This document shows positions 17,280 to 51,596 of a stretch of 64,000 bases of DNA, one piece after another. This DNA is from an uncultured Alphaproteobacteria bacterium (lineage in GTDB: Bacteria > Pseudomonadota > Alphaproteobacteria > CAAGCB01 > CAG-977). The notes beneath the pieces were generated by a model. It saw only the letters and a list, made by a program, of their open reading frames with translations, was not told the DNA's origin and made no database searches. The stretch's first letter is position 1, and each line of letters opens with the position of its first letter. Location: the NCBI GenBank assembly GCA_944390195.1, contig CALXOZ010000007.1:18443-82442 (forward strand), in the 5' to 3' direction. The translations under genes and the position numbers were made by a program.

Positions 17280-17387
17280 TCGTTCTTTGATTTTTGATAT
17301 TTTCCGGATCGTACCGGATATTGAAAGACAATCTGTTCCGGATTTCGCGAAAACAGGGGGCAGTTTTTCTTACTTGGAAATTTTTCT

Positions 17388-17425
17388 GAAAGCAGCTTTG
17401 GCTTTGGAAGGGCTTTCCTGTTTTT
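17388..17425 (+). terminator. Probable intrinsic terminator after gltA.
   Basis: GAAAGC...GCTTTC stem followed by CTGTTTTT, about 110 nt after the gltA stop. The stem is imperfect. Confidence 0.4.
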
Positions 17426-17990
17426 AACGGATAAATAGTGTCGTAATGCCTTCCTGAGAAAGCTCTCCTCCGAAATGCATAAAACAAAGCATCGACGGAT
17501 CATCTGTAAAGGATTGTTGTTTGTTTTATTGTAGGGCATATATTTCAGGAGGGCTGTTTAAATATTTGCGATTTTTGCGTCATTTTTGCAGATAATCACC
17601 GTTACTTTTTGAAAAGGCGGGGAAGGGGAAGCGTTCTGTCAATCTTGATGTCGAAAACAGTAAGGAAATTTATCAGACAGTGTTGATTTTTCCAGTTTGA
17701 AACGATATCAGCAATAAAGCTTTTTTATCAAGAAGTGATGTAAAAGCTTCACTTGATTTTTTCCGTCCAACAACTTGTTAAAATCCTTTACCTTTAAAAA
17801 ATACCTAATACATACCCCGTATGTTTTGGAACAAAATATTGAAAACGGCTTTTGTTAAATGATGCCTTCGTTTGTTAGACATGACCGGAAGGGTGTGGAC
17901 TTTTGTTTGATCGCCTAATGTCTTGATGTCGTTTTTGATTTTTTTGTGTACTGTTATTATATTGCCGGTATGATATTTCAGGAGAAGCCG

Positions 17991-18347
17991 ATGGCGGTAA
18001 ATGAGCAATTGATCGCAAAAAAAATGGCAAAGGCTTTAGCGTTTTTATGTTTGAATGAACATCTTCAAACGCCTTTGCATAACGGGGAACACCCCGTATC
18101 AAAAACAGGTGATTATTCCGATGTTTTCATCACCGATGCCGAAGGGCGTCAAATCGTTTGGTGCCAAGCTTGTCGTGTGTCATGCAAAGAACGCGAGAGA
18201 GTGTTTGATGATGTCGCAAAAGGGATTTATGATTTTTTACTCAACATTGAAACGGATTTTTATACCAGACGGTTGGAACGCGCATATCGTGCTTGCGTCC
18301 ATTGGAAAAAAGAAGGACTTAAAAAAAAGACAAAAAGGAGAATATAG
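17991..18347 (+). CDS. Hypothetical small protein, 118 aa.
   Basis: The track ORF starts at 17946. I prefer the ATG at 17991, preceded by the AGGAGAAG SD (MAVNEQLIAKK...). A candidate promoter TTGTGT-N17-TATTAT lies upstream. Lys-rich C-terminus. No family recognised. Confidence 0.35.
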   Translation: MAVNEQLIAKKMAKALAFLCLNEHLQTPLHNGEHPVSKTGDYSDVFITDAEGRQIVWCQACRVSCKERERVFDDVAKGIYDFLLNIETDFYTRRLERAYRACVHWKKEGLKKKTKRRI

Positions 18348-18423
18348 CTTTTTTTTGTTTCTTTTATAACGGATTCAAGGTAAAACAAAAATAAGTGTTT
18401 TAACCGATGGATCTGATTTTGAT

Positions 18424-24505: not shown

Positions 24506-25154
24506 ATTTATTTCCAATATATTTGCCTTTGTTGACAATTACGATCATATTATTATATGTTTTCTTGTTTTTTTCGACAAGTTCGGAAATTATATTGTAA
24601 GAATGTTATTATGCTTTGAATAAAAGACGCCGCCTGAACTGTAGCGTGCATGTAAAAAGCATATTATAGTCATTGAAACAGATGACAGCGTAAGAATAGT
24701 TCGGGCAGAATTTTTTTACTCTTTAAGATAATATTAAAAATTGATGTTGCTTCATTAATGCTTTTTTTTACATCACAACGGCATCGTATTGAAAATAAAA
24801 TTTTTATTATACAGTTTTTAATCGTTGCCATACGACATTATCGTTTTATCATAAAAAATATAAACGAATTTGCCATGGAATGGTGAAAATATCAGGGCAG
24901 TGTTTTTTTCTATGCTGTCATTTATAATTTCATTTTAGAATATTAAGTATTTCGTTTCTCTGTATTCAAAGCGATATCCGTTTTTTCTCGGGTATAAAAA
25001 ATACTTTCCGGATCATACTTTTTCCTTCTGATACATGAGGAACACTTGTCAGGCATAGAACGTCTTGCAAGAACCAAATGTCTAATTACTGAAGGTTTTT
25101 CCTCTTTAACAAAGCAGTCTTTTAAAAAGAATAACACCTTATGTTGCGATAAGT

Positions 25155-37194: not shown

Positions 37195-37212
37195 TATTGC
37201 CACAAATTCCAT

Positions 37213-37244
37213 AAAAACAGAGAGGGGAGCCTCTCTGTTTTTTT
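37213..37244 (+). terminator. Intrinsic terminator after eno.
   Basis: CAGAGAGG-ggag-CCTCTCTG stem followed by a 7-T run, 19 nt after the stop. An A-run precedes it, so it could act bidirectionally. Confidence 0.8.
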
Positions 37245-37845
37245 ATGGGGAAGATATGGTCTTTCCTTGTTTTGCAAAAACAGACAAGTGATCCTTGCTT
37301 GTTGAAGATAAATAAAATGTCGTAACAGACGAAGCCTGAAAACGGAAAGCGGATTATTTATAAGGCAAAAAAATACTTGGAAAAATCTTTTTATTTGAAG
37401 TTATTTAAAATCATATTTTATGGATCGTTAAATGCGAATAGAATTCAATTTGTTAAATATTATAAGTTTGAAATTTATGGATACGAGAATTGTTGTTTAT
37501 CTTATGAATTTATAGAAGCCTGTTATTTTTGTTTTGAAATTTTTTATGGTAAGAGGCTTTTATAAATGTTCTAAAAAATCCGGAATTGAAGTGGGACGAA
37601 GAAAGGCGGCTTATTTTGAAATGTTTCTCTTGTTTGCTCCTGTTACTTAAGTTTTGATGCAGTGATCTTATTTGAAAATTAAAGGTTTTTCAAAAACTTT
37701 CTGGTTGCCCTTTTTCCTCCGACGGAAATTCTTGCCGGATTGGAACAAAGAGGTGTCTTTGTGTTTTTTGTAGAATATCATCAATTTTTTATGATTGGAA
37801 AAATGATTAAAAGGCGGGGCGATAATTTAAAAGCGCTCCGGAAAC

Positions 37846-37870
37846 GGGTGGAGAGGGGGAGGGAGAGGGG
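37846..37870 (+). repeat. G-rich tract matching a canonical G-quadruplex motif (GGG-N6-GGGGG-N1-GGG-N3-GGGG).
   Basis: GGGTGGAGAGGGGGAGGGAGAGGGG is conspicuous within a roughly 900-bp AT-rich non-coding region. Confidence 0.5.
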
Positions 37871-38097
37871 AGTTTGGAAAGGCCGTCCGTTATCATATTA
37901 CAACTGAGAATTGGAATGGAGTGTGTTATAGGCTTATTATGGAAAAGTTTTAAAAGAAAATGAAATATTCGGAGAAAAACGTCAAAATCATTTAAAAATC
38001 TTTTTGTTTTTTCCGGTTGATATTAGTCTTATGGCATATGTTGCAGTTCTTTTGAACTGTTTTGAAAAGCAATGGGTGTTACACAGTCTGTTTGGCA

Positions 38098-38124
38098 TGA
38101 AAAATCCCGCATTTTATGCGGGAT
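38098..38124 (-). terminator. Intrinsic terminator of the 38150-38602 lipoprotein gene.
   Basis: Minus-strand ATCCCGCAT-aaa-ATGCGGGAT stem followed by TTTTTC, 26 nt after the stop. Confidence 0.65.
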
Positions 38125-38149
38125 CTCTTTTCGGTAATTGAATGAAAAT

Positions 38150-38602
38150 CTATTCTTCGCTGAAAATACGATAAGCCTCTGCCGGATCGTCAGTGTCCTG
38201 TACTTTCAAGTCCATCGGGCAAAGTCCAGTTTTCGTCCGGTTGAGTATATTATCCAATACTTGGTCGGCGCTGTATTTTATACCATATTTTTCATAGATT
38301 TTAATTGCCGGCTTAGATATGACCGGTGTGTAAACTTCTTTGACTTGTCCGTAGACGTGTAATAACGCTGATGCTTTTCCAACAATGCGGTCTGCGACAA
38401 AAGCGTCTTTGAACGTGCCGTCATTCAAACGGATTAATAAAGGATCAAGGCCTCTTTCATCATAAAATGTTGTTTTTCCGTCTTTATATACGATAAGGGT
38501 ATGTTCCTTTAACTGATTACGAAGGAAATCCGTGTCAGGACGTTTTGACATTGAACAAGCTATTAATAAAATAGTCATCAAGCCGATAAAAAAAGATTTC
38601 AT
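38150..38602 (-). CDS. Hypothetical lipoprotein.
   Basis: 150 aa. Signal peptide plus lipobox LIACS. No family recognised. It has its own terminator and is flanked by long non-coding DNA. Confidence 0.5.
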   Translation of the reverse strand: MKSFFIGLMTILLIACSMSKRPDTDFLRNQLKEHTLIVYKDGKTTFYDERGLDPLLIRLNDGTFKDAFVADRIVGKASALLHVYGQVKEVYTPVISKPAIKIYEKYGIKYSADQVLDNILNRTKTGLCPMDLKVQDTDDPAEAYRIFSEE

Positions 38603-39090
38603 AATATCAACTCCATAAAAAAGGACATTAGAGAATACAAACCTAAAAAAGTTTTAAGTCAATACAAAAAAGTACATATTTTAAAGGTTTTTTTTACTGT
38701 TGAAAATCTGTTTTACGGATTTATGTAACAGAATAAAGAAAAAGCTATTTTAATCATTGTATGACAATAATGTAGAGACTGATTGATTTGCCATAAAGCG
38801 AAGGGGAAACATAATCTGAAAGAAGGGAAAAAGAAGTCTGTTTATGAAAGATTTCTTCGCCTATTTCCAGTTTTTAAGGTTAATAAAGGTATAAAATGAG
38901 TATAAAGAAGCTAGTTATAAATTTTAATTTTTTATAATATTGTCATCTTTAGCCTTAAAAAATCAATTTGATATAAAGCACTTTGTGGATTTCCATTCAT
39001 TTTTAAAAATCAGGAATGCATTGAAAATATTATTGAATTTTTGTGTGGGCAATGTCATTCAGTTAAAAAAATCTGTCATACGAAAAACGG

Positions 39091-39275
39091 TTTTTCATAT
39101 ATTTATTGGTCTGTATTTTTTGTTGCCGGTTTTATGGTAAAAATTGAACGCCTATGATAGGCATGACAACACGATCGTCTTTAAGCTGATTTAATTGTAG
39201 GAAATTGTTCTGTCATGTATTGGTGAATGTTAAAAATATAAAATAATACAGGATCATCTTTAAAGATGCTTTTTT
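39091..39275 (+). repeat. Copy 1 of a dispersed composite non-coding element, ending in palindrome plus T-run. Candidate sRNA or MITE-like repeat.
   Basis: Three blocks are nearly identical to the reverse complement of 49554-49681. Block A (39091-39134) is TTTTTCATATATTTATTGGTCTGTATTTTTTGTTGCCGGTTTTA. Block B (39215-39237) is ATGTATTGGTGAATGTTAAAAAT. Block C (39252-39275) is GATCATCTTTAAAGATGCTTTTTT. Copy 1 carries an extra 80-bp insert between blocks A and B. Confidence 0.6.
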
Positions 39276-39892
39276 AACAAAATATCCCAAGCTCAAAGCG
39301 AGAGACGCTTTTTATTTCCGTTCAGTCTGGCGGAGTGGCAACCTCTTTGGAGTTTGAACCGCAGGCACGATTTAAAAGACGCTTTCTTAACAAGTGTCTC
39401 CAACACAAGTTTACATCCATACTTTTCTTACATATATGGATATCACCGTATTTTTCTGTAAATCCCCCGTACTCCCATAAACCGGAAATTACCTTATTTA
39501 TCCGACTTTTCATTCCTCATTTTTCCCAAAAACGATCGAACAGAACGCGTTTAATAAATCACAACCGCTTAAAAAAGATGTGCTCGCCGCCTCACTGGGC
39601 TAAACAACCTCTCCATAAACATCAAAAAAACAAAATATACAAAATACTTTATCCCATTAATCTCAGAGAATATTTTCTCTCGATCATTCAATAAACAGGA
39701 ATATACCTAACCACTAAAACACTTCACACTCTTTCACAGGCAATACAAAAAAATGTTTTCTATTCTTTTTTATAAAAAACATCTCATCTCTGTTCATTCC
39801 TACTAAAAAAACATACCTAAGCTCATTCCTAAAAAATAAGGGCGAATCCTGTGAAACTTTTTTATTCTATAAAACCGCAGAATTGTTTTTCA

Positions 39893-39925
39893 CAAAAAAA
39901 ATCCTCCAAGACAGGAGGATTTTTC
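39893..39925 (-). terminator. Intrinsic (bidirectional) terminator, about 200 nt downstream of the pmm-like gene.
   Basis: AAAAAAATCCTCC-aagaca-GGAGGATTTTT. The 7-8 bp GC-containing stem has an A-run on one side and a T-run on the other. Confidence 0.55.
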
Positions 39926-40077
39926 GTTTTACGGATATAAAAAAACATTTAAGCCTTTTGAAATGATGAGTTATAGCCCACTTCTTTTATTGTTTCAAAA
40001 GATAAATATCTTTGCCAGTACTTTAAAAGACATATATCAAATGTAAATCTTTTAAATTTATTCTAGAATAAAGACAA

Positions 40078-40123
40078 AATATGGCAAAAATATGGTTTGA
40101 ATTATGGCGAATTATGGCAAGGA
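40078..40123. repeat. Iteron-like direct repeats (A/T)TATGGC(A/G)A, four copies at about 10-14 bp spacing.
   Basis: aaatATGGCAAAaatATGGtttgaaTTATGGCGAaTTATGGCAAgg, immediately 3' of the pmm stop (40132). Confidence 0.4.
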
Positions 40124-40131
40124 AGCCTTAT

Positions 40132-43159
<3,028 letters not shown>

Positions 43160-43290
43160 CTAAGAACTTTTAATAAGAATCATTGTTTAAGAATCATCTG
43201 AAAAATACTTTGTAACAGGATTACGAATCCGAGCCCGTCTGTCAAGAAAAGCTTGTTTTTAGCTTGTTTTATGCGGTATTAAAGCCGGTC

Positions 43291-44097
43291 TTACGAAGAG
43301 ATGTCTTCTCCTATTGCCTGCAAAATGGCGCGTAATTCTTGTCTTGCTGCGATGTGAGGCATTGACATTGAGATTCCCACCTTGGGTTTTCCGACATCAA
43401 GAAGCGTCAATCCTTTTAAAAAAAGTTCTCTGAACACGACCCGTTCCCCCAATCCGGACAAAGCTGTAAAATTGATTCTTTTACCCAAGGCTTCCAGCAA
43501 CTTCCAAATCAATTTTTCATTTCGTGTCGAAACATGCATCATACGGTTGCGCAAAACGAACCATCTTGTTTGAGGCTTTTTTTGCGAAGCGCGTTGTTGG
43601 CGTGCCTGCCAAACGGTTTGAGCATAATGTGCCGGAGATTTGATCGTCAGTGTTTCCGGTTCGATTTGAGCCAGAACATCCAAATCAATCAGACTGTCGT
43701 TCAACGGTGTAATCAAAACGTCTGCGACAACATGAGCCAAACGGAACAAATAGCTGTCTGCCCCCGGTGTGTCGATGATGATCACATCGTTTTCTTTTTG
43801 CAATTTGTCCAGTTGTTTTATAAAAGCGTCTTCATCTTCTTTTCTTTGTTGGGGATCGGGGTTTGCGCGCACAGTTACACTAAGGTGTACGGGCAGTTCC
43901 AAAGCGACATGATGCAATTCGGCATAATCCGCCCTGTTTTGAATATAATGAGTCAACGTCCCTTGACGCCCGTCCAGATCAATTGAAGCGACCGTCTTTT
44001 TTTGATGTAGCAACCAAGCTATCAAATGCATTGCCAACGTTGATTTTCCGGTACCGCCTTTTTCGTTACCGATTACAATTATTTTCCCTTTCGGCAT
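43291..44097 (-). CDS. mipZ: ParA/MinD-superfamily ATPase of the MipZ type (division-site positioning).
   Basis: Track ORF runs to 44145. The ATG at 44097 (MPKGKIIVIGNEKGGTGKSTLAMHL) gives a deviant Walker A GNEKGGxGKST, which is characteristic of MipZ rather than ParA (KGGVGKTT). About 268 aa. Confidence 0.7.
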   Translation of the reverse strand: MPKGKIIVIGNEKGGTGKSTLAMHLIAWLLHQKKTVASIDLDGRQGTLTHYIQNRADYAELHHVALELPVHLSVTVRANPDPQQRKEDEDAFIKQLDKLQKENDVIIIDTPGADSYLFRLAHVVADVLITPLNDSLIDLDVLAQIEPETLTIKSPAHYAQTVWQARQQRASQKKPQTRWFVLRNRMMHVSTRNEKLIWKLLEALGKRINFTALSGLGERVVFRELFLKGLTLLDVGKPKVGISMSMPHIAARQELRAILQAIGEDISS

Positions 44098-44176
44098 AAG
44101 TATCCCCGCTTTTTTTTGAACAGATCCTAACCAGCGGAAGACCAAAATTCAAGATTTTTAAATTCGATAAAAAAAT

Positions 44177-44206
44177 CACGATTTATTTGTTATTTTTTTC
44201 ACGATT
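44177..44206 (+). promoter_or_regulatory. Direct repeat TCACGATT(T/A)A, two copies spaced 22 bp apart, upstream of hydC.
   Basis: TCACGATTTA at 44177-44186 and TCACGATTAA at 44199-44208. The two-helical-turn spacing suggests a direct-repeat operator. Confidence 0.3.
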
Positions 44207-44213
44207 AAGACTT

Positions 44214-44257
44214 GCTTTTAACGCATCGAAAGTTTAAAACTTAAAATGCGTAAAAGC
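44214..44257 (+). promoter_or_regulatory. Nested 44-bp palindrome 60-100 nt upstream of the hydC start, either an operator or a 5'-UTR hairpin.
   Basis: GCTTTTAACGCAT-cga-AAGTTTAAAACTT-aaa-ATGCGTAAAAGC. The outer arms are complementary apart from one extra A. The inner 13-bp palindrome is perfect. Confidence 0.35.
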
Positions 44258-44315
44258 CGAAACAATCAAGACCGATTTTAACCGGCTACCCGTCATACTT
44301 TTTGGAGAAAGCTAA

Positions 44316-44822
44316 ATGAGTGAAACGACAGGGCATGAAATATCAGCCTTTGATAAAATAGAAAAGGTCAAGGAGATTTTGGATAAGAATGGTCGCCAAA
44401 GTTCTCGATTGATCCCCATTTTGCAGGAAGTACAGGAAGTTTACCGTTACCTGCCTAAGGAAATTATGAATTATGTTGCACAAGCGCTCGGCATTCCTGC
44501 CGGTCGTGTTTACGGTGTTGCGACGTTTTACGCCCACTTTTCTTTAGACCCTAAAGGGCGTTACTTAATCCGTTTATGCGACGGCACAGCCTGTCATGTA
44601 CGCGGATCGGAACCGATATTGCACGCTTTACGTGACAAATTGGGATTGAGCGCGGAAAAACCAACAACCGATGATATGATGTTTACAATTGAAACCGTTT
44701 CCTGTCTGGGCGCTTGCGGTTTGGCTCCGGTCGTCGTTGTGAACGAAGACGTTCATGGACAAATGACACCGGATAAAGCGGTTAAAATGATTGATGATAT
44801 TTTGCAGGCGGAGAATTCTTGA
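44316..44822 (+). CDS. hydC: NuoE-like [2Fe-2S] thioredoxin-fold subunit of a trimeric [FeFe] hydrogenase (HydC/HndA type).
   Basis: 168 aa. Cys pattern C...C-x35-CxxxC (RLCDGTACHVRGS...VSCLGACGLAP) typical of NuoE/HydC. The stop overlaps the hydB start. Confidence 0.8.
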   Translation: MSETTGHEISAFDKIEKVKEILDKNGRQSSRLIPILQEVQEVYRYLPKEIMNYVAQALGIPAGRVYGVATFYAHFSLDPKGRYLIRLCDGTACHVRGSEPILHALRDKLGLSAEKPTTDDMMFTIETVSCLGACGLAPVVVVNEDVHGQMTPDKAVKMIDDILQAENS

Positions 44823-46723
44823 TGACTGAAAATTTGGAAAAAATTGCTTCTGACTACAAAGCAATGCACGACACCGTAACCCGCCGTATGGTAATTTGCG
44901 CAGGGACGGGGTGTATTGCAAACGGATCGTTGAAACTGTACGAAGCCCTTTTAAAAGAAATTCAAAAAGCCGGTATCAATGTCGCTGTTGAATTGAAATC
45001 CGAAGACCATAATAAAAAATCTCTGTTATCCAAAAGCGGCTGTCAGGGATTTTGTCAGATGGGACCTTTGTTGACAATAGAACCGGACGGTATTTTATAT
45101 TGTCGCGCACATGCGGCGGATGCTGCTGAAATCGTAGAAAAAACACTTAAAAATAACGAATTGATTGACCGTTTGGTCTATAAAAACCCGACGGACGGTT
45201 CTCATTGCCGCGGGACGAACGACATTCCGTTTTATACACGCCAACGTCGTACCGTTTTAAAAGCCTGCGGTCATGTCAATCCGGAAGATATTCGCGAATA
45301 TATTTATCATGACGGTTATAAAGCTGCTCAAAAAGCCTATACGGAAATGAGTGATGAAGACGTTTGCAAAGAAATTTTGGATTCCGGTTTGCGCGGACGT
45401 GGCGGCGGCGGTTTCCCGACAGGTTTGAAATGGGATTTGACCCGTAAAGTCAAAGGTGAGAAAAAATACGTTATTTGTAACGCTGATGAAGGCGATCCGG
45501 GGGCTTTTATGGATCGTTCCGTTATGGAAGGCAATCCTCACTCCGTTATTGAAGGAATGATGATCGCCGCAAGGGGAATCGGTGCCGATGAAGGTTACAT
45601 TTATGTCCGTGCCGAATATCCCTTGGCTGTCAAGCGTATGCGTAAAGCCATTGAGGACGCTCAAAACATCGGCGTTCTGGGACACGACATCTTCGGTTCC
45701 GGTAAAAATTTCATCCTGCACGTCATGGAAGGGGCGGGCGCGTTCGTTTGCGGTGAAGAAACAGCATTAATGGCTTCCATTGAAGGCTCGCGCGGTATGC
45801 CGCGTCCGAAACCGCCTTTCCCAGCTCAGTCGGGGTTGTGGGGAAAGCCGACGGTCATTAATAACGTTGAAACTTTAGCAAGCGTTCCGATGATCATTCT
45901 GCACGGTGCCGCGAATTACCGCTCCGTCGGTACGCAAAAATCCCCTGGAACAAAAACATTTGCAGTAACGGGGCATGTCGCAAACACAGGCTTGATCGAA
46001 GTCCCCTTTGGAACGACTTTGCGTGAAATCATCTTTGATATCGGCGGCGGCGTCTTGAACGCAAAAGGCGAAGTCGATAACGATAGTTTCAAAGCCGTGC
46101 AAATCGGCGGTCCGTCCGGCGGATGCCTGACTGCGGAACATTTGGATTTGCCGATTGATTTCGATTCTTTGCGTTCTGCAGGCGCTATGGTCGGTTCGGG
46201 CGGTCTTGTCGTCATGAACAAAAACACTTGCATGGTCAGTGTCGCCCGTTTCTTTATGCAATTTACGCAAAACGAATCATGTGGCAAATGTACTCCGTGC
46301 CGTGAAGGAACAAAACAAATGCTCGCCCTGCTGGATGATATCATGGCGGGTCGCGCTACCGAAGAAACTCTGGATCTGTTGGAAGAAACCGCTAAAACCG
46401 TCCAAAAAGCCTCTTTATGCGGTTTAGGTAAGACAGCTCCGAATCCGGTATTGTCCACTTTACGTTATTTCCGGGACGAATATTTGGCGCATGTACGCGA
46501 TAAAACATGCCCAACCGGTCAATGCAAAGCTTTGGCAAAACCGGAAATCGATCCGATTCTGTGCCGCGGTTGTACCGCGTGCGCACGGAAATGTCCTGTC
46601 GGGGCCATATCTGGAACGGTTAAAAAACCACATGTTATTGATCCGACAAAATGTATTAAGTGCGGTGTTTGCGCCGCAACGTGTAAGTTCGGTGCCGTAA
46701 AAGGCATCGCTCCCCGTGCTTGA
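44822..46723 (+). CDS. hydB: NuoF-like NADH-binding flavoprotein subunit of a bifurcating [FeFe] hydrogenase (HydB/HndC type).
   Basis: The track ORF starts at TTG 44819, but the ATG at 44822 (TGATG overlap) is preferred. An N-terminal thioredoxin-like 2Fe-2S domain is followed by the NuoF core (GLRGRGGGGFPTGLKW FMN/NADH site; the CxxCxxC N3 cluster appears as ESCGKCTPCREG). Two 4Fe-4S ferredoxin motifs sit at the C-terminus. Confidence 0.85.
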   Translation: MTENLEKIASDYKAMHDTVTRRMVICAGTGCIANGSLKLYEALLKEIQKAGINVAVELKSEDHNKKSLLSKSGCQGFCQMGPLLTIEPDGILYCRAHAADAAEIVEKTLKNNELIDRLVYKNPTDGSHCRGTNDIPFYTRQRRTVLKACGHVNPEDIREYIYHDGYKAAQKAYTEMSDEDVCKEILDSGLRGRGGGGFPTGLKWDLTRKVKGEKKYVICNADEGDPGAFMDRSVMEGNPHSVIEGMMIAARGIGADEGYIYVRAEYPLAVKRMRKAIEDAQNIGVLGHDIFGSGKNFILHVMEGAGAFVCGEETALMASIEGSRGMPRPKPPFPAQSGLWGKPTVINNVETLASVPMIILHGAANYRSVGTQKSPGTKTFAVTGHVANTGLIEVPFGTTLREIIFDIGGGVLNAKGEVDNDSFKAVQIGGPSGGCLTAEHLDLPIDFDSLRSAGAMVGSGGLVVMNKNTCMVSVARFFMQFTQNESCGKCTPCREGTKQMLALLDDIMAGRATEETLDLLEETAKTVQKASLCGLGKTAPNPVLSTLRYFRDEYLAHVRDKTCPTGQCKALAKPEIDPILCRGCTACARKCPVGAISGTVKKPHVIDPTKCIKCGVCAATCKFGAVKGIAPRA

Positions 46724-46740
46724 ATGAAAGGTGAAGCTTG

Positions 46741-48723
46741 ATGACTGAAAAGAAAACTCTGTTCATTGACGGCAAAGAAGTCGTAATCGAAAATGAACGC
46801 AATATTTTAGAGCTGTGCCGTAAAGCGGGGATCGATATCCCGACGTTTTGCTACCAGCCGGAATTGAGTATCTATGGCGCATGCCGGCTATGCTTGGTTG
46901 AAATCGAAGGCAGAGGTATTTTGTCTTCGTGTTCCACACCTCCTGAAGCAGGCTTGAAAATAAAAACAAATACGGATGAAATCCGTCAATTGCGCCGTAC
47001 GACAATGGAATTGCTGTTGGCGTCCCATCCTCAAGATTGTTTGAAGTGCGGGAAAAGTACACACTGCAAATTGCAGGAAATCGCCCGTAAGGTGGGAGTA
47101 AAAGAAATCCGTTACAAACATTCGGTCAAAGACCTGCCGGTAGATAACAGTTCTTATTCTTTGGTGCGTGATCCCGCAAAGTGTATTTTGTGTGGCAATT
47201 GCGTGCGGATGTGCGCTGAAATTCAGGGAATCGGAGCCGTCAACTTTGCCAATCGCGGATCAAATAGTACGGTTATTACGGCGTTTGGTAAGGATATGGC
47301 TAAAACGGAATGTGTCAACTGCGGTCAATGTGCCGCCGTTTGCCCGACCGGAGCGTTACAAATCAAGTCTGAAATTGATGAAACAATGAAAGACATCAAC
47401 AATCCCGAAAAGATAACGGTTGTCCAAATAGCTCCGGCCGTCCGTGTCGCCATAGCAGAAGAATTTGGTCTGCCTGCCGGTGTGGATTCAACGAAAAAGA
47501 TTGTTTCCGCTTTAAAAAAGATCGGTGTCGATTATGTTTATGATACCAACTTTACAGCAGACATGACGATTGTCGAGGAAGCCACTGAATTTGTACAACG
47601 CTTACAGAACGGCGGCACATTCCCGATGTTTACCTCATGTTGTCCGGCATGGATCAAATATGCGGAAACGTATTATCCGTCTTTATTAAAGAACATCAGT
47701 TCCTGTCGTTCTCCGCAAGGAATGTTTGGCGCAATCGTGCGTAAAGCGATGCCTGGCGTTACCGGAAAAGACAACAAAGATATCGTTTCGATTTCCATTA
47801 TGCCCTGCACGGCCAAAAAGTTCGAAGCCCGTCGCGATCAGTTCATTCATGACGGCAAAGCGGAAATTGATCATGTCCTGACAACGCAAGAATTGGCTGA
47901 GATGTTGAAATCAGCCGGTATCAATCTGGCGGAAATCGATGATGTCGAATTGGATATGCCGTTAGGCATGTACACCGGTGCCGGCGTTATTTTCGGCGTT
48001 ACCGGAGGCGTGATGGAGGCCGTGTTGCGTTTTGCTGCGGAAAAAGTCGGCGGCGTCAAAGACGCAATTGAATTTAAAAACGTTCGCGGTTTTGAAGGCA
48101 TTCGTGAAGCTGAAGTCGAATTAAACGGCAGAACGTTCAAATTAGCGGTTGTTCATGGGTTGGCGAATGCCGGAAAAGTGGCTCAATCCGTTATTGATGG
48201 AACATGTAAGTATGATTTGATCGAAGTGATGGCTTGCCCGATGGGATGTGTCGGCGGTGCTGGACAGCCTGTCAGCGAAGGTTGTGTCAAAAAGAAACTT
48301 CGTGCTCAAGGATTATATAAGGCTGATGAATCGTGTGCATTGCGTAAATCTCAAGAGAACACAGCTGTTTATGACGTTTACGAAAAATACTTTGAAGGTG
48401 GTCCCGCAACACATGCGGCGCATGAGAATCTACATACGACATATGTTTGCCGACCGAAAACGGAAATGGAAATGAGCATCAATAAGGCTGATAAGGATGC
48501 TGTTCGAGTCGAGCTGAATTTATCAGGTGAAAATATGCGCAAAGGTGTTGAAAACCTGATGGGTGACGTTTTGGCGAAAATCCGTGAGAACGACTTGCAA
48601 AAACGAACAAAAGTCGTAGTTACTTTTGGACATACGGGAGAGGATCCGATGGTTTCAGTCGCTGGAAAAGCGGTTAATCCTGATGTGGACGATGTTATAA
48701 AAGCCATTATTGAGAATAAATAA
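46741..48723 (+). CDS. hydA: [FeFe]-hydrogenase catalytic subunit (group A, HydA) with N-terminal 2Fe-2S and 4Fe-4S domains.
   Basis: All three H-cluster motifs are present: L1 TSCCPAW, L2 MPCTAKKFE and L3 EVMACPMGCVGGAGQP. N-terminal plant-type 2Fe-2S (CRLC...C) and F-cluster CxxCxxCxxxCP motifs. Track ORF starts at TTG 46738; the ATG at 46741 sits after a GGTGAAG SD. Confidence 0.85.
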   Translation: MTEKKTLFIDGKEVVIENERNILELCRKAGIDIPTFCYQPELSIYGACRLCLVEIEGRGILSSCSTPPEAGLKIKTNTDEIRQLRRTTMELLLASHPQDCLKCGKSTHCKLQEIARKVGVKEIRYKHSVKDLPVDNSSYSLVRDPAKCILCGNCVRMCAEIQGIGAVNFANRGSNSTVITAFGKDMAKTECVNCGQCAAVCPTGALQIKSEIDETMKDINNPEKITVVQIAPAVRVAIAEEFGLPAGVDSTKKIVSALKKIGVDYVYDTNFTADMTIVEEATEFVQRLQNGGTFPMFTSCCPAWIKYAETYYPSLLKNISSCRSPQGMFGAIVRKAMPGVTGKDNKDIVSISIMPCTAKKFEARRDQFIHDGKAEIDHVLTTQELAEMLKSAGINLAEIDDVELDMPLGMYTGAGVIFGVTGGVMEAVLRFAAEKVGGVKDAIEFKNVRGFEGIREAEVELNGRTFKLAVVHGLANAGKVAQSVIDGTCKYDLIEVMACPMGCVGGAGQPVSEGCVKKKLRAQGLYKADESCALRKSQENTAVYDVYEKYFEGGPATHAAHENLHTTYVCRPKTEMEMSINKADKDAVRVELNLSGENMRKGVENLMGDVLAKIRENDLQKRTKVVVTFGHTGEDPMVSVAGKAVNPDVDDVIKAIIENK

Positions 48724-48739
48724 AAACGAATAGTGCAAT

Positions 48740-48772
48740 AAAGCCCTCTGTGCAAGTCAGAGGGCTTTTTGT
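48740..48772 (+). terminator. Intrinsic terminator of the hydCBA operon.
   Basis: AAAGCCCTCTG-tgcaagt-CAGAGGGCTTT stem followed by TTTT, 17 nt after the hydA stop. Confidence 0.8.
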
Positions 48773-49290
48773 ATATGGGACATTTTGTACTGAAAGGTGA
48801 TTATAAAACAAAAGAAGTCAACATACATTTTAGAGAAATATCTGAAGATAAATATTAAAGTTCAAAATAAAGAGTATGTTTAGGAAAAATGCGAAAGGAG
48901 ATAAAAAACATTTTTTTTCATTGTAGGTGGAATACAGTGATGTGTTTAAGCATATTCCGGTTTATCGAATAACTGTTTTTTTTTGAGACCGATTGGAAGA
49001 TTCGATTTTATATATTCCAGCTATGCCAGAGAGATTGTTTTGGCAAATGGTCGATGAGGAACACCTGATATTTCAAATCTTTTTTTAACGGTTGTGATTT
49101 GACAAATGTGGTTTATTCGATTGTTTTCATGATAATGAAGGATAAAAAAACAAATAAATAAGATGCATTTTCGTTTTAAGGGGTAAATTGTTTTCAAGTT
49201 TATGAAGGATGAAAGAGGATGGGGAAAGAGTCAGAAGTACGAGAATATCCGGAAATGCAAGAAACATATGAACAGAACCGTGCACTTGGG

Positions 49291-49548
49291 ACACCTTGTT
49301 AAGAAGGCGTCTCTTAAGGCTTTTGAATAATTCGAAAAACGTAACAGTTGAGAGCGAATAGTGGTCTTTAACTTTATATTCGGTACACCTTGTTAAGAAG
49401 GCGTCTCTTAAGGCTTTTGAATAATTCGAAAAACATAACAGTTGAGAGCGAACAGTGGTCTTTAACTTTATATTCGGTACACCTTGTTAAGAAGGCAGCT
49501 CTTAAAGCATTTGAATAATTCGAAAAACGTAACAGTTGAGAGCGAACA
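49291..49548. repeat. Tandem array of a 94-bp unit, about 2.75 copies, non-coding.
   Basis: Units begin at 49291, 49385 and 49479; the third is truncated after about 70 nt. Identity between units is 95% or higher. Each carries an internal palindrome TTAAGA-aggcgtc-TCTTAA and TTCGAA. The 94-bp period is not a multiple of 3. The track ORF 49374-49562 lies inside the array and is spurious. Confidence 0.9.
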
Positions 49549-49553
49549 AAGGG

Positions 49554-49681
49554 AAAAAGCATCTTTAAAGATGATCTTGCATTGTTTTAAACATTTTTAA
49601 CATTCCGCCAATACATAACCAAACACTTCCTTATATTAAAACCGGCAACAAAAAATACAGACCAATAAAATATATGAAAAA
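49554..49681 (-). repeat. Copy 2 of the dispersed composite element (blocks A, B, C), lying 83-210 nt downstream of the mutL stop on the minus strand and abutting the 94-bp tandem array.
   Basis: The reverse complement matches copy 1 blocks A (49637-49681), B (49593-49616) and C (49554-49576). Block C, read on the minus strand, is GATCATCTTTAAAGATGCTTTTT, a palindrome plus T-run. It could double as the mutL terminator. Confidence 0.6.
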
Positions 49682-49763
49682 GTCTGTTAAGCTGGATTAG
49701 GCGAAGACTGTCAATGCACCTATAACTTTCAATATGATTTCAAAACCGGAGTATTTTTAAAAT

Positions 49764-51596
49764 TTATTCTCTTCGTCCGAATAATTTTTCAATGTCTTTT
49801 AGTTTCAATTCAATATATGTCGGGCGTCCGTGAATGCATTGACCGGAATAGGGGACGGCTTCCATTTGCCGTAACAATGAGTTCATCTCTGAAACATCAA
49901 GCGTTTTGCCCGCACGAACAGAAGTATGACATGCCATTGTCGCCGCGATTTTCTTTATCCGTTCTGTAAGCGCCATATCACTGCCGAATTCGATCAATGT
50001 GTCTGCTATATCGGTAATTAACGTTTTAACGTTTGTTTCTCCTAAAATCGCGGGTATTGCTCGAACTAAAACGGCATCTGTTCCAAAAGGTTCAAACAGA
50101 AGCCCCGTTTTTTCCAATTCATTTTTTTGCTTGAGGAATGCATCGCATTTTTCACCGGATAATTCTACGATTTCGGGTAGTAAAAGGTATTGTGCCGGTG
50201 CGTTTCCCTCTTGCATATTTTTTTTGATTTTTTCATAAGTCAGACGTTCATGTGCGGCATGTTGGTCGACAATGGCAATTCCATCTTGTGTTTGTGAAAT
50301 AATATATGTTTTGTGCAATTGTGCTCTGGCTAATCCCAAAGGGGGAAAAATATCCGGTTCCGATTGTTGATGCTTGTCAATATCAACGGTTTCCTGACTG
50401 ATAGGAGCGGAAAATAACTCTTCAGCATTAAACAAAACTCTGGTTTCTTTTAAAGAAGGGGTTGATTTTGCATGATACCGGAACGATCCGTTTTTAAACG
50501 GTAGGGAAAACTTTTTTAATGACGTTGACGACGGTGAAGGAAAAACAGGTGGGGCTTCGACAGCGACTTTTAAGGCCGTATCGGACAAAGTTGACGAAGT
50601 GCGAAAAGCTGAACCCATTAAAGCTTGTCGTACAGCTGTGATAATCATTCCCCTGACAGCTTGAGAGTTTCTGAAACGGACTTCCGCTTTTGTCGGATGA
50701 ACGTTAACATCGACATCTTCCGGTGGAATCGTTAAAAACAGTACGACAACAGGGAAACGGTCTGATGCTATTAACTCTTGATAAGCAACTTTAATCGCAC
50801 TGAACAACACCTTATCGCGGACAGGGCGATTGTTAACAAAAAAATACTGAGATGCGGCGGTCGATTTGTTCAAAGTGGGAATTCCGATAAATCCGTTTAA
50901 ATGAATATCTTCCTTTTGAATATCCACCGGAACTGCGTTATCACTGAATTCTTTTCCGATGACATCGGTGATGCGTTCGATTTTATTGTTTGATAAAATG
51001 GGTTTTAATTCCAGACGTTTCTTCTTTTCGTCGGATAAAGTAAAACCAACATGAGGATGGGCTAATGCCAATTTTTCAATAATTTCTTGAATATAGCTTG
51101 TTTCCGTTTGTGCGGATTTCAAAAATTTCAATCGGGCAGGGACAGCATAAAACAAATCCCTTACCTCTACCCGTGTACCGACCGGAGCACTTGCCGGTTC
51201 GGGATCATATTTTTTTCCGCCTTCGACAAATAACGTCCATGCCGTATCCATTGTTGCGGTTCTGGACGTAATGCGCATGCGTGACACGGAGGCAATGGAG
51301 GGTAAAGCTTCGCCTCTGAATCCTAAAAAACGTATGTCGAATAAATCATCGTCCGGCAGTTTTGAGGTCGCAAAACGTTCGACTGCCAAATTCAATTCTT
51401 CAACCGTCATGCCTTTGCCGTTGTCTATGACCGTTAAAGCCGCTTTACCGGCTTCATTCAAAATGATGTCGATCTTTGTGGCTTGAGCGTCCAAGGCGTT
51501 TTCAATCAATTCTTTTACCGCCGATGCCGGACGTTCCAAAACTTCTCCGGCGGCGATGCGGTTGACCAATGTCGGCGGTAAAAGACGCAATGTCAT
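49764..51596 (-). CDS. mutL: DNA mismatch repair protein MutL.
   Basis: 610 aa. The GHKL ATPase motifs are LRLLPPTLVNRIAAGEVLERPASAVKELIENALDA, DNGKGM and GFRGEAL. The C-terminal dimerisation domain is present. Confidence 0.9.
   Translation of the reverse strand: MTLRLLPPTLVNRIAAGEVLERPASAVKELIENALDAQATKIDIILNEAGKAALTVIDNGKGMTVEELNLAVERFATSKLPDDDLFDIRFLGFRGEALPSIASVSRMRITSRTATMDTAWTLFVEGGKKYDPEPASAPVGTRVEVRDLFYAVPARLKFLKSAQTETSYIQEIIEKLALAHPHVGFTLSDEKKKRLELKPILSNNKIERITDVIGKEFSDNAVPVDIQKEDIHLNGFIGIPTLNKSTAASQYFFVNNRPVRDKVLFSAIKVAYQELIASDRFPVVVLFLTIPPEDVDVNVHPTKAEVRFRNSQAVRGMIITAVRQALMGSAFRTSSTLSDTALKVAVEAPPVFPSPSSTSLKKFSLPFKNGSFRYHAKSTPSLKETRVLFNAEELFSAPISQETVDIDKHQQSEPDIFPPLGLARAQLHKTYIISQTQDGIAIVDQHAAHERLTYEKIKKNMQEGNAPAQYLLLPEIVELSGEKCDAFLKQKNELEKTGLLFEPFGTDAVLVRAIPAILGETNVKTLITDIADTLIEFGSDMALTERIKKIAATMACHTSVRAGKTLDVSEMNSLLRQMEAVPYSGQCIHGRPTYIELKLKDIEKLFGRRE

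Follow-up and report, generated by a model that had tools for sequence, protein, structure and literature searches.

Two non-coding inverted repeats flank a 9-kb block of genes

We analyzed a 64,000-nt stretch of DNA (the window) from an uncultured Alphaproteobacteria bacterium (contig CALXOZ010000007.1 of assembly GCA_944390195.1). Two non-coding sequences in inverse orientation, here called arm 1 and arm 2, lie in it on either side of a 9-kb block of housekeeping genes. The arms fill exactly two long gene-free gaps of 1,529 and 1,040 nt. That two copies of a repeated element lie in such long gene-free regions had been noted in an earlier annotation made from the letters of the window (the sequence-only reading). 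Left of gap 1 are the genes for enolase (plus strand) and a DUF1893 protein (minus strand), and right of gap 2 are those for MutL and PGI (both minus). Between the gaps, Pfam assigns PGM_a, PGM_b and a MipZ-like ATPase, all on the minus strand, followed by NuoE-, NuoF- and HydA-like [FeFe]-hydrogenase subunits, all on the plus strand. Terminators separate the genes from the arms, at ∼39893–39935 for PGM_a and at 48740–48768 for HydA. Coordinates of the features are collected in Table 1.

Table 1. Features of the two arms, the block between them and the adjoining genes (window positions)
Feature	Position	Strand	Basis and remarks
DUF1893 (TM1506-family) gene	38150–38602	-	Fixed left neighbour; adjoins HydA in relatives
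Arm 1, left inverted repeat, outer to inner	38975–39868	+	Five inverted matches; adjoins DUF1893 in both block orientations
Outer flank of arm 1 (f1)	39001–39090	+	71% identical to arm-2 outer flank
Block A	39091–39134	+	Longest identity island; switch point of chimeric arms
Copy-1-specific 80 nt between A and B	39135–39214	+	Pairwise alignment; small hairpin at 39148–39164, terminator-like on minus strand
Blocks B (39215–39237) and C (39252–39275)	39215–39275	+	Local matches, alignment; C is a 23-nt perfect palindromic hairpin, then a T run
Single degenerate relative of 94-nt unit	39372–39443	+	Hairpin GACGCTT-TCTTAAC-AAGTGTC; 0 mismatches to unit motif
Inner body of arm 1 (b1)	39400–39842	+	Strongly G-poor on this strand; 39842 is the last base common to both alternative junctions
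Junction-specific 26-nt segment (i1)	39843–39868	+	Only where arm 1 meets PGM_a side; junction mapping
Invertible block	39869–48810	.	Pfam; inverted versus L002, L003, L004, L005, L007 and versus same-species L025, L028, L037, L042
PGM_a-proximal spacer with terminator	39869–40131		Left end of block
HydA-proximal spacer with terminator	48724–48810		Right end of block
Arm 2, right inverted repeat	48811–49785	-	Inverted matches, alignment; adjoins MutL in both orientations
Tandem array of 94-nt units in arm 2	49288–49569	-	2.7 copies in window
Copy 2 of A-B-C: C' 49554–49576, B' 49593–49616, A' 49637–49681	49554–49681	-	Inverted matches
mutL	49764–51596	-	Fixed right neighbour, 3' end toward arm 2; adjoins PGM_a in relatives

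Five collinear inverted matches join arm 1 (from ∼38975) to arm 2 (read from 49785 to 48811), each arm spanning ∼0.9 kb. A pairwise alignment, made with two of the three tandem units of arm 2 taken out, showed 75% identity in ungapped columns and many indels. GC skew of the arm bodies is strong and mirrored, at –0.4 to –0.68 in arm 1 and +0.26 to +0.39 in arm 2. A coding or pseudogene origin was rejected, the open reading frames (ORFs) within the arms belonging to no Pfam family.

The sequence-only reading had singled out three short blocks, A, B and C, as a discrete element of ∼185 bp present in two inverted copies. The blocks lie where it placed them. Block A matches the reverse complement of its partner at 44 of 45 positions, with a perfect run of 33 nt (39102–39134), and is the longest island of identity in the arms. 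Block C (39252–39274) is a perfect 23-mer match, and block B falls within a segment that is 82% identical between the arms (39190–39274 versus 49640–49554). Each of these patterns occurs twice in the window, versus 0.00 expected from 100 shuffles. The element is not discrete, however; the collinear matches carry the homology on to ∼0.9 kb. At a uniform 75% identity, a run of at least 33 nt has P ∼0.013 and a second run of at least 23 nt has P ∼0.02, so within the larger repeat the blocks exceed chance runs by only a modest margin. Blocks A–C are the best-preserved islands of two diverged, non-coding inverted repeats of ∼0.9 kb.

Two further details of the sequence-only reading bear on the arms. 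It described an extra 80-bp insert between blocks A and B of copy 1. The 80 nt are indeed present, but they do not form a simple insert: they cannot be aligned, and they face 20 unrelated nt in copy 2. It also saw a relative of the 94-nt unit of arm 2 following block C in copy 1, and this was borne out, with no mismatch to the hairpin motif of the unit at 39377–39394. The relative as a whole aligns with 49317–49245 at 73% identity. Copy number of the 94-nt array varies by strain, from 2.7 in the window and in same-species contig L035 (356–612) to 4.7 in L025 (12122–12567), and the array of L028 (5275–5666) is rearranged, with internal duplications of 26 and 39 nt.

The block is inverted relative to sister species

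Relatives of the locus were collected with a scan for the MipZ-like protein, taking one genome per species. This gave 22 loci at 68–81% identity, nearly all from uncultured gut or rumen Alphaproteobacteria, and none of the 22 contains arm-like sequence. The gene order of the closest relatives is DUF1893, then HydA–NuoF–NuoE–MipZ–PGM_b–PGM_a, then MutL–PGI. Three of them (L002, L004 and L007) carry the stretch from DUF1893 through HydA to PGM_a, and two (L003 and L005) carry PGM_a next to MutL–PGI. Their gaps measure ∼110 and ∼400 nt and have no resemblance to the arms; the one longer gap, between PGM_a and MutL of L005, is filled with ORFs. Compared with this order, the window has the whole 9-kb block inverted between outer genes of unchanged orientation, and each of the two junctions is occupied exactly by an arm. 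It is because the sister order differs while the outer genes stay fixed that we regard the block as the part inverted in the window.

Both orders occur within the species

Exact look-ups of PGM_a variants, DUF1893 and PGI yielded 32 loci of the same species. The PGM_a protein has an identical copy in the public collection, with the next homologue only 70% identical, and PGM_a DNA is 99.8–100% identical among the same-species loci. Exact look-ups of the window MutL and of the 661-aa HydA returned no record. Orientation was assigned by mapping the gaps, and then with anchors and exact diagnostic 30-mers.

Eight same-species contigs have the order of the sister species (L023, L024, L025, L028, L030, L033, L037 and L042). 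One of these, L025, holds both junctions on a single 80.8-kb scaffold. The alternative order is found in the window and in five contigs (L027, L029, L031, L032 and L034). Window positions 38603–39842 are 98.7% identical to the DUF1893-side gap of L025, even though the block of L025 is flipped. In both orders, then, DUF1893 has arm 1 (through 39842) beside it and MutL has arm 2 (from ∼48904). Since each arm keeps its outer neighbour, the exchange would map to the inner edges of the arms. These comparisons of assembled sequence show inversely oriented repeats bracketing a segment that differs in orientation both from sister species and among conspecific contigs.

Two side observations concern these contigs. 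An ORF of 54 aa is predicted across the junction of arm 1 with HydA in sister-order contigs only (L025 2590–2754, L037 810–974 and L042 1324–1488) and is probably spurious. Moreover, the MutL gene (window 49764–51596, compared from L025 to L051) and the DUF1893 region contain SNP (single-nucleotide polymorphism) blocks that are shuffled among contigs, for example at MutL sites 34/37, 259–265 and 289–303. This pattern indicates that recombination between strains of the species is probably frequent.

Arms carry patches of one another

Several contigs have arms of mixed identity. In L035, the DUF1893 flank leads into block A and from there into the body of arm 2 (98.9% identity). L050 and L051 show the converse, with the MutL flank running through block A into the body of arm 1 (98.3–98.5%). 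L035 and the L050/L051 pair are thus reciprocal products in which arm identity switches inside block A, and the three contigs come from three samples. L050 and L028 are alike in MutL at all but 1 of 1,833 sites, but their arm bodies are different. Block A itself varies little: a 27-nt core is identical across 17 arm copies, and 1–2 SNPs are present in the block A of L035 and L039.

Exchange is also seen beyond block A. On the DUF1893 side of L027 and L039, f1 is replaced by an outer flank of arm-2 type, 91–92% identical to 49637–49762, and the two contigs have this distinct flank in common. In addition, the window and L025 have a 1-nt indel adjacent to block A on opposite arms. Taken together, the contigs show the arms as mosaics of one another, with apparent exchange at the outer flank, at block A and at the inner end.

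Inner junctions and contig ends

The chief difference between the orientations lies at the inner edge of the arms, where the sequence is junction-specific. At the alternative junction, the 26-nt segment i1 is replaced by a different 26-mer that is 65% identical to it. The inner 57–93 nt of arm 2 likewise depend on orientation. An attempt to reconstruct a reciprocal exchange at nucleotide level failed here, the junction-proximal sequences being orientation-specific.

De Bruijn assemblers halt at a branch, or k–1 bases past a merge. The last base shared by both continuations of arm 1 is 39842, and L050 and L051 end exactly there. L029 and L032 end at 39766, which is 39842 minus 76 and fits k = 77. 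Moving outward from PGM_a, the last base common to both junction types is 39869, and this is where L034 (k87) ends. For block A, the last base common to the paths into body 1 and body 2 is 39134, which is the end of L036 (k87, same sample as L034). Hence five contigs from four samples end at branch points of the inner junction, and L036 ends at that of block A. Because contigs end exactly at branch points, these data imply that a single sample can contain alternative junctions, at block A as well as at the inner edge; a mixture of strains and ongoing flipping would fit this alike. As a side observation, independent k87 assemblies repeatedly give contigs of ∼9 kb made up of the invertible block alone (L023, 9,082 nt; L026, 8,107 nt; L034, 9,115 nt).

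Probable inverted duplication and flipping of the block

We consider it likely that the locus is a lineage-specific inverted duplication whose ∼0.9-kb non-coding arms recombine with each other and flip the 9-kb housekeeping block. The sequence-only reading had offered a recombinogenic repeat as one of its options, and in this it did well: the 9-kb segment seen in both orientations has a copy exactly at each end, and sequence passes between the copies. An inverted duplication would have created the arms in this uncultured gut/rumen alphaproteobacterial lineage. Crossing-over between them would then flip the intervening segment, and gene conversion would copy patches from arm to arm. Such exchange could largely maintain the perfect identity of block A. 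The agent would most likely be the general recombination machinery of the cell rather than a dedicated invertase. As the block appears to carry divergent promoters of its own and to be closed by a terminator on both sides, a flip is predicted to leave the operons intact and probably changes little. The inversion polymorphism may well be neutral.

Several observations weigh against this account. Arms that are 75% identical, with a longest perfect stretch of 33 nt, make a poor substrate for RecA-type recombination, and the inversion between 1.7-kb repeats in Staphylococcus aureus is recA-independent (PMC6778178). With arm identity this low and that precedent, RecA is not to be assumed. The inner junctions have no visible shared core, and the two orientations are not clean flips of each other, given the differences in the 26-nt segment and in inner arm 2. 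Hence, the inversion may date far back, may have been imprecise, or may have followed a path less simple than reciprocal exchange. Orientation also sorts in part by study, a pattern that stable strain lineages and ongoing flipping would explain equally well; a four-gamete test on PGM_a SNPs had too few sites to tell a single inversion from a recurrent one. The block-A chimeras come from short-read assemblies of low coverage (∼3–4×), in which a 45-nt repeat could cause mis-joins. Finally, blocks A and C are somewhat longer than chance (P ∼0.01–0.02), and local functional constraint could account for this.

Alternative explanations

Programmed site-specific inversion, that is, phase variation, would have block A and a second site, at the inner arm ends, as targets of a recombinase encoded elsewhere. 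Four states would result: the block could flip, and the non-coding bodies of ∼0.7 kb could change places, upstream of DUF1893 or on the 3' side of mutL. Four combinations of junction types are in fact seen, and the switch in all three chimeras falls in one 45-nt block that is invariant across nearly every strain and arm. The contig ends at exact branch points suggest coexisting junctions within samples, and nested inverted-repeat systems with four variants are known (PMC4272514). Yet no Resolvase, Phage_integrase or transposase domain was found among the neighbouring genes and the further sizeable ORFs that were scanned in the 64-kb window, although the gene could be distant. No common core marks the inner junctions, where the sequence changes with orientation. 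Exchange in the outer flank (L027 and L039) means that switching is not limited to one site, and block A is simply the longest identical stretch and so the likeliest place for any homology-dependent exchange. Moreover, the flipped genes form housekeeping operons with their own promoters and terminators, and no obvious gene is switched. Block B, considered as a dif-like site, gave no convincing match. Overall, we find programmed inversion unlikely.

A more elaborate form of the same idea has the DNA switching at two levels, block A and the inner junctions. Two different non-coding cassettes of ∼0.7 kb would trade places between the upstream side of DUF1893 and the mutL 3' (antisense) side, and the hydrogenase/phosphoglucomutase block would be reversed, again with a recombinase encoded elsewhere. 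We judge this decidedly improbable. If true, it would amount to phase variation of core metabolism or of mismatch-repair expression in an uncultured gut alphaproteobacterium.

The sequence-only reading also proposed a paralogous family of small RNAs (sRNAs). In this case, the arms would encode related small or long non-coding RNAs, in the form of either the A-B-C unit, with its end at block C, or a longer RNA read from the G-rich strand; the conserved blocks would owe their identity to RNA function, and the inversion would be incidental. The identity islands are somewhat longer than expected, and the strand asymmetry of the arm bodies is strong and mirrored. In copy 1, the hairpin of the 94-nt unit has lost one base on each side of the stem (GACGCCTT/AAGGTGTC versus GACGCTT/AAGTGTC) and still pairs; a G-U pair is present on only one of the strands. 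This may hint at structure; as a single event, it is weak evidence. Other results speak against an RNA. Rfam gave no match anywhere in the 64 kb at the gathering threshold; at a permissive threshold, nothing relevant appeared in either gap, the weak terminator-type matches all falling outside the arms. Folding of A–C, of block A alone and of the 94-nt unit, on both strands, gave z-scores of +0.6 to –1.5, hence no excess stability, and the predicted folds differ between the copies, with no fold common to both. Block C had been called terminator-like. It is a palindromic hairpin followed by a T run, but its stem consists of 5 AU-rich pairs and the terminator scan did not call it. Promoter-like sites do not exceed the shuffled expectation (11 versus 7.6 and 3 versus 4.2), and a hand search for promoters in block A found no convincing match, in line with the scan tool, which finds no excess. 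A protein-sponge RNA was rejected as well, GGA motifs on the G-rich strand numbering 10 versus 9.5–9.8 expected. Sequence conservation is absent from all 22 related loci. An RNA family is therefore doubtful, and we rate it as quite unlikely.

The arms might instead be remnants or members of a mobile family, such as a miniature inverted-repeat transposable element (MITE), an insertion sequence (IS) end or a prophage end, inserted at both sites. A small mobile repeat was the other option of the sequence-only reading. There are two copies at otherwise short intergenic positions, they are absent in sister species, and they include internal tandem repeats. However, neither end of either arm has visible terminal inverted repeats or target-site duplications, and the arm ends fade into low similarity. 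Only two copies exist in the 64 kb, and none was found in the other same-species flanks examined. Phage, plasmid and viral collections contain nothing similar to the arms. An exact scan for block A found no copy in the metagenome collection, nor in the viral collections scanned. With no family for the arm ORFs and no transposase or recombinase in the window, a mobile origin appears very unlikely, and a check for an IS or prophage end that might include the copies turned up none.

One contig had seemed to supply a mobile link. In L031, arm 1 looked to be linked to a locus bearing an IS4/5-family element in L055, and the 72-nt tail of L031 was considered as a third copy or IS connection. The tail was traced to the VanZ–AraC spacer in a polysaccharide locus of another organism. 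L031 leaves the DUF1893 flank at window position 39064 and enters this spacer (L031 2825–2896, L055 517–613, L056 10276–10391); L043 ends at the same base. Because only a 22-nt AT-rich match is shared with the window, the L031 link is probably a cross-organism assembly chimera. The IS4/5 element itself (L055 ∼620–1545) comprises DUF4096 and DDE_Tnp_1 ORFs between terminal repeats TAGGG(T/C)GTGTTTCCAAAT. It sits just after the start codon of a gene for an AraC-type regulator that is intact in L056, and it is unrelated to the arms.

That the inversion is an assembly artefact of the window or the metagenome contigs is extremely unlikely: inverted repeats commonly cause mis-assembly and many contigs do break in the arms, but the sequence on either side of all four junction types is unique, recovery was from five separate samples for J1, five for J4 and three for J2, and for J3 from the window and one other sample, the junctions come from different assemblers (megahit k87, SPAdes-type and Logan), and no long identical repeat lies at the inner junctions to cause a mis-join.

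Other features of the region

PGM_a and PGM_b (window 40132–43153) are tandem phosphoglucomutase/phosphomannomutase paralogues with a 14-nt overlap. Identity to relatives is 47–70% for PGM_a versus 84–95% for PGM_b; PGM_a evolves much faster. A third long gene-free region, of 955 nt, lies between enolase and DUF1893 (37195–38149) and has a GC skew of up to +0.5. It is the stretch most variable between strains, with indels of 6, 13 and 23 nt and dense SNPs (L027, L035 and L036), and it neither matches Rfam nor resembles the arms. Two more long stretches lack sizeable ORFs, at 17280–18369 (1,090 nt) and 24539–25154 (616 nt). The sole ORF in the former (17946–18347, 133 aa) has no Pfam family. 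No tRNA or tmRNA gene was detected.

Comparison with known systems

Inversions flanked by rrn operons, IS elements or prophages are chromosomal inversions of the same kind as the one proposed here. The kind of event is therefore known; what is unusual is that the arms are non-coding. The locus provides a case of a small inversion polymorphism, flanked by repeats and affecting housekeeping genes, from a little-known, uncultured gut/rumen alphaproteobacterial group, and it explains why assemblies of the species repeatedly break to give contigs of ∼9.1 kb. Were flipping frequent and driven by an enzyme, the block would be an unusual target of phase variation; nothing here requires that.

The closest parallel in our comparison is the chromosomal flip of S. 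aureus between two 1,748-bp copies of hsdMS (PMC6778178). Both cases have long inverted flanking repeats, several crossover regions (apparent ones in the present case), short-read assemblies that break or mislead, and both arrangements within one species. Here, by contrast, the repeats are non-coding and 75% identical, with 33 nt as the longest perfect run, the flipped segment holds only 9 kb of housekeeping genes, and one level of exchange lies at the very inner edge of the repeats.

Invertase-driven systems such as invertible promoters, intragenic invertons and shufflons are similar in that a segment bounded by inverted repeats occurs in both orientations (PMC11892184; 10.1101/2023.03.11.532203; PMC4272514), and in a P2-like prophage locus of enteropathogenic Escherichia coli several repeat pairs give four variants (PMC4272514). 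Block A, at 45 nt, would fit as the core repeat for one level of exchange. Unlike the arms, however, inverton repeats are short (tens of nt), usually adjoin an invertase and enclose a promoter or coding segment whose inversion changes expression. Four-variant systems likewise have nearby invertases and defined cores. Neither is seen here, where the 64 kb contain no invertase, the inner junctions lack a core, and the flipped genes have their own promoters and terminators.

Plastid inverted repeats are 20–25 kb long, essentially identical and gene-rich, and they give equimolar isomers. Flip-flop recombination between them resembles the present case: two inverted repeats bracket a single-copy region found in both orientations, and gene conversion keeps, or here would keep, parts of the repeats identical. 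The arms described here differ in being short and diverged.

Finally, sRNA genes with intrinsic terminators, and MITEs, share with the arms the presence of short, non-coding, repeated intergenic blocks in which a hairpin is followed by a T run. The arms differ from an sRNA gene in having no promoter, stable structure, strong terminator or conservation across species, and from a MITE in having no terminal repeats or target duplications and, in the 64 kb and the other same-species flanks examined, only two copies. An annotation trap is thereby corrected: conserved short blocks in long intergenic gaps had the look of an sRNA or a MITE, but they belong to diverged inverted repeats at inversion breakpoints, of which they are the visible tips.

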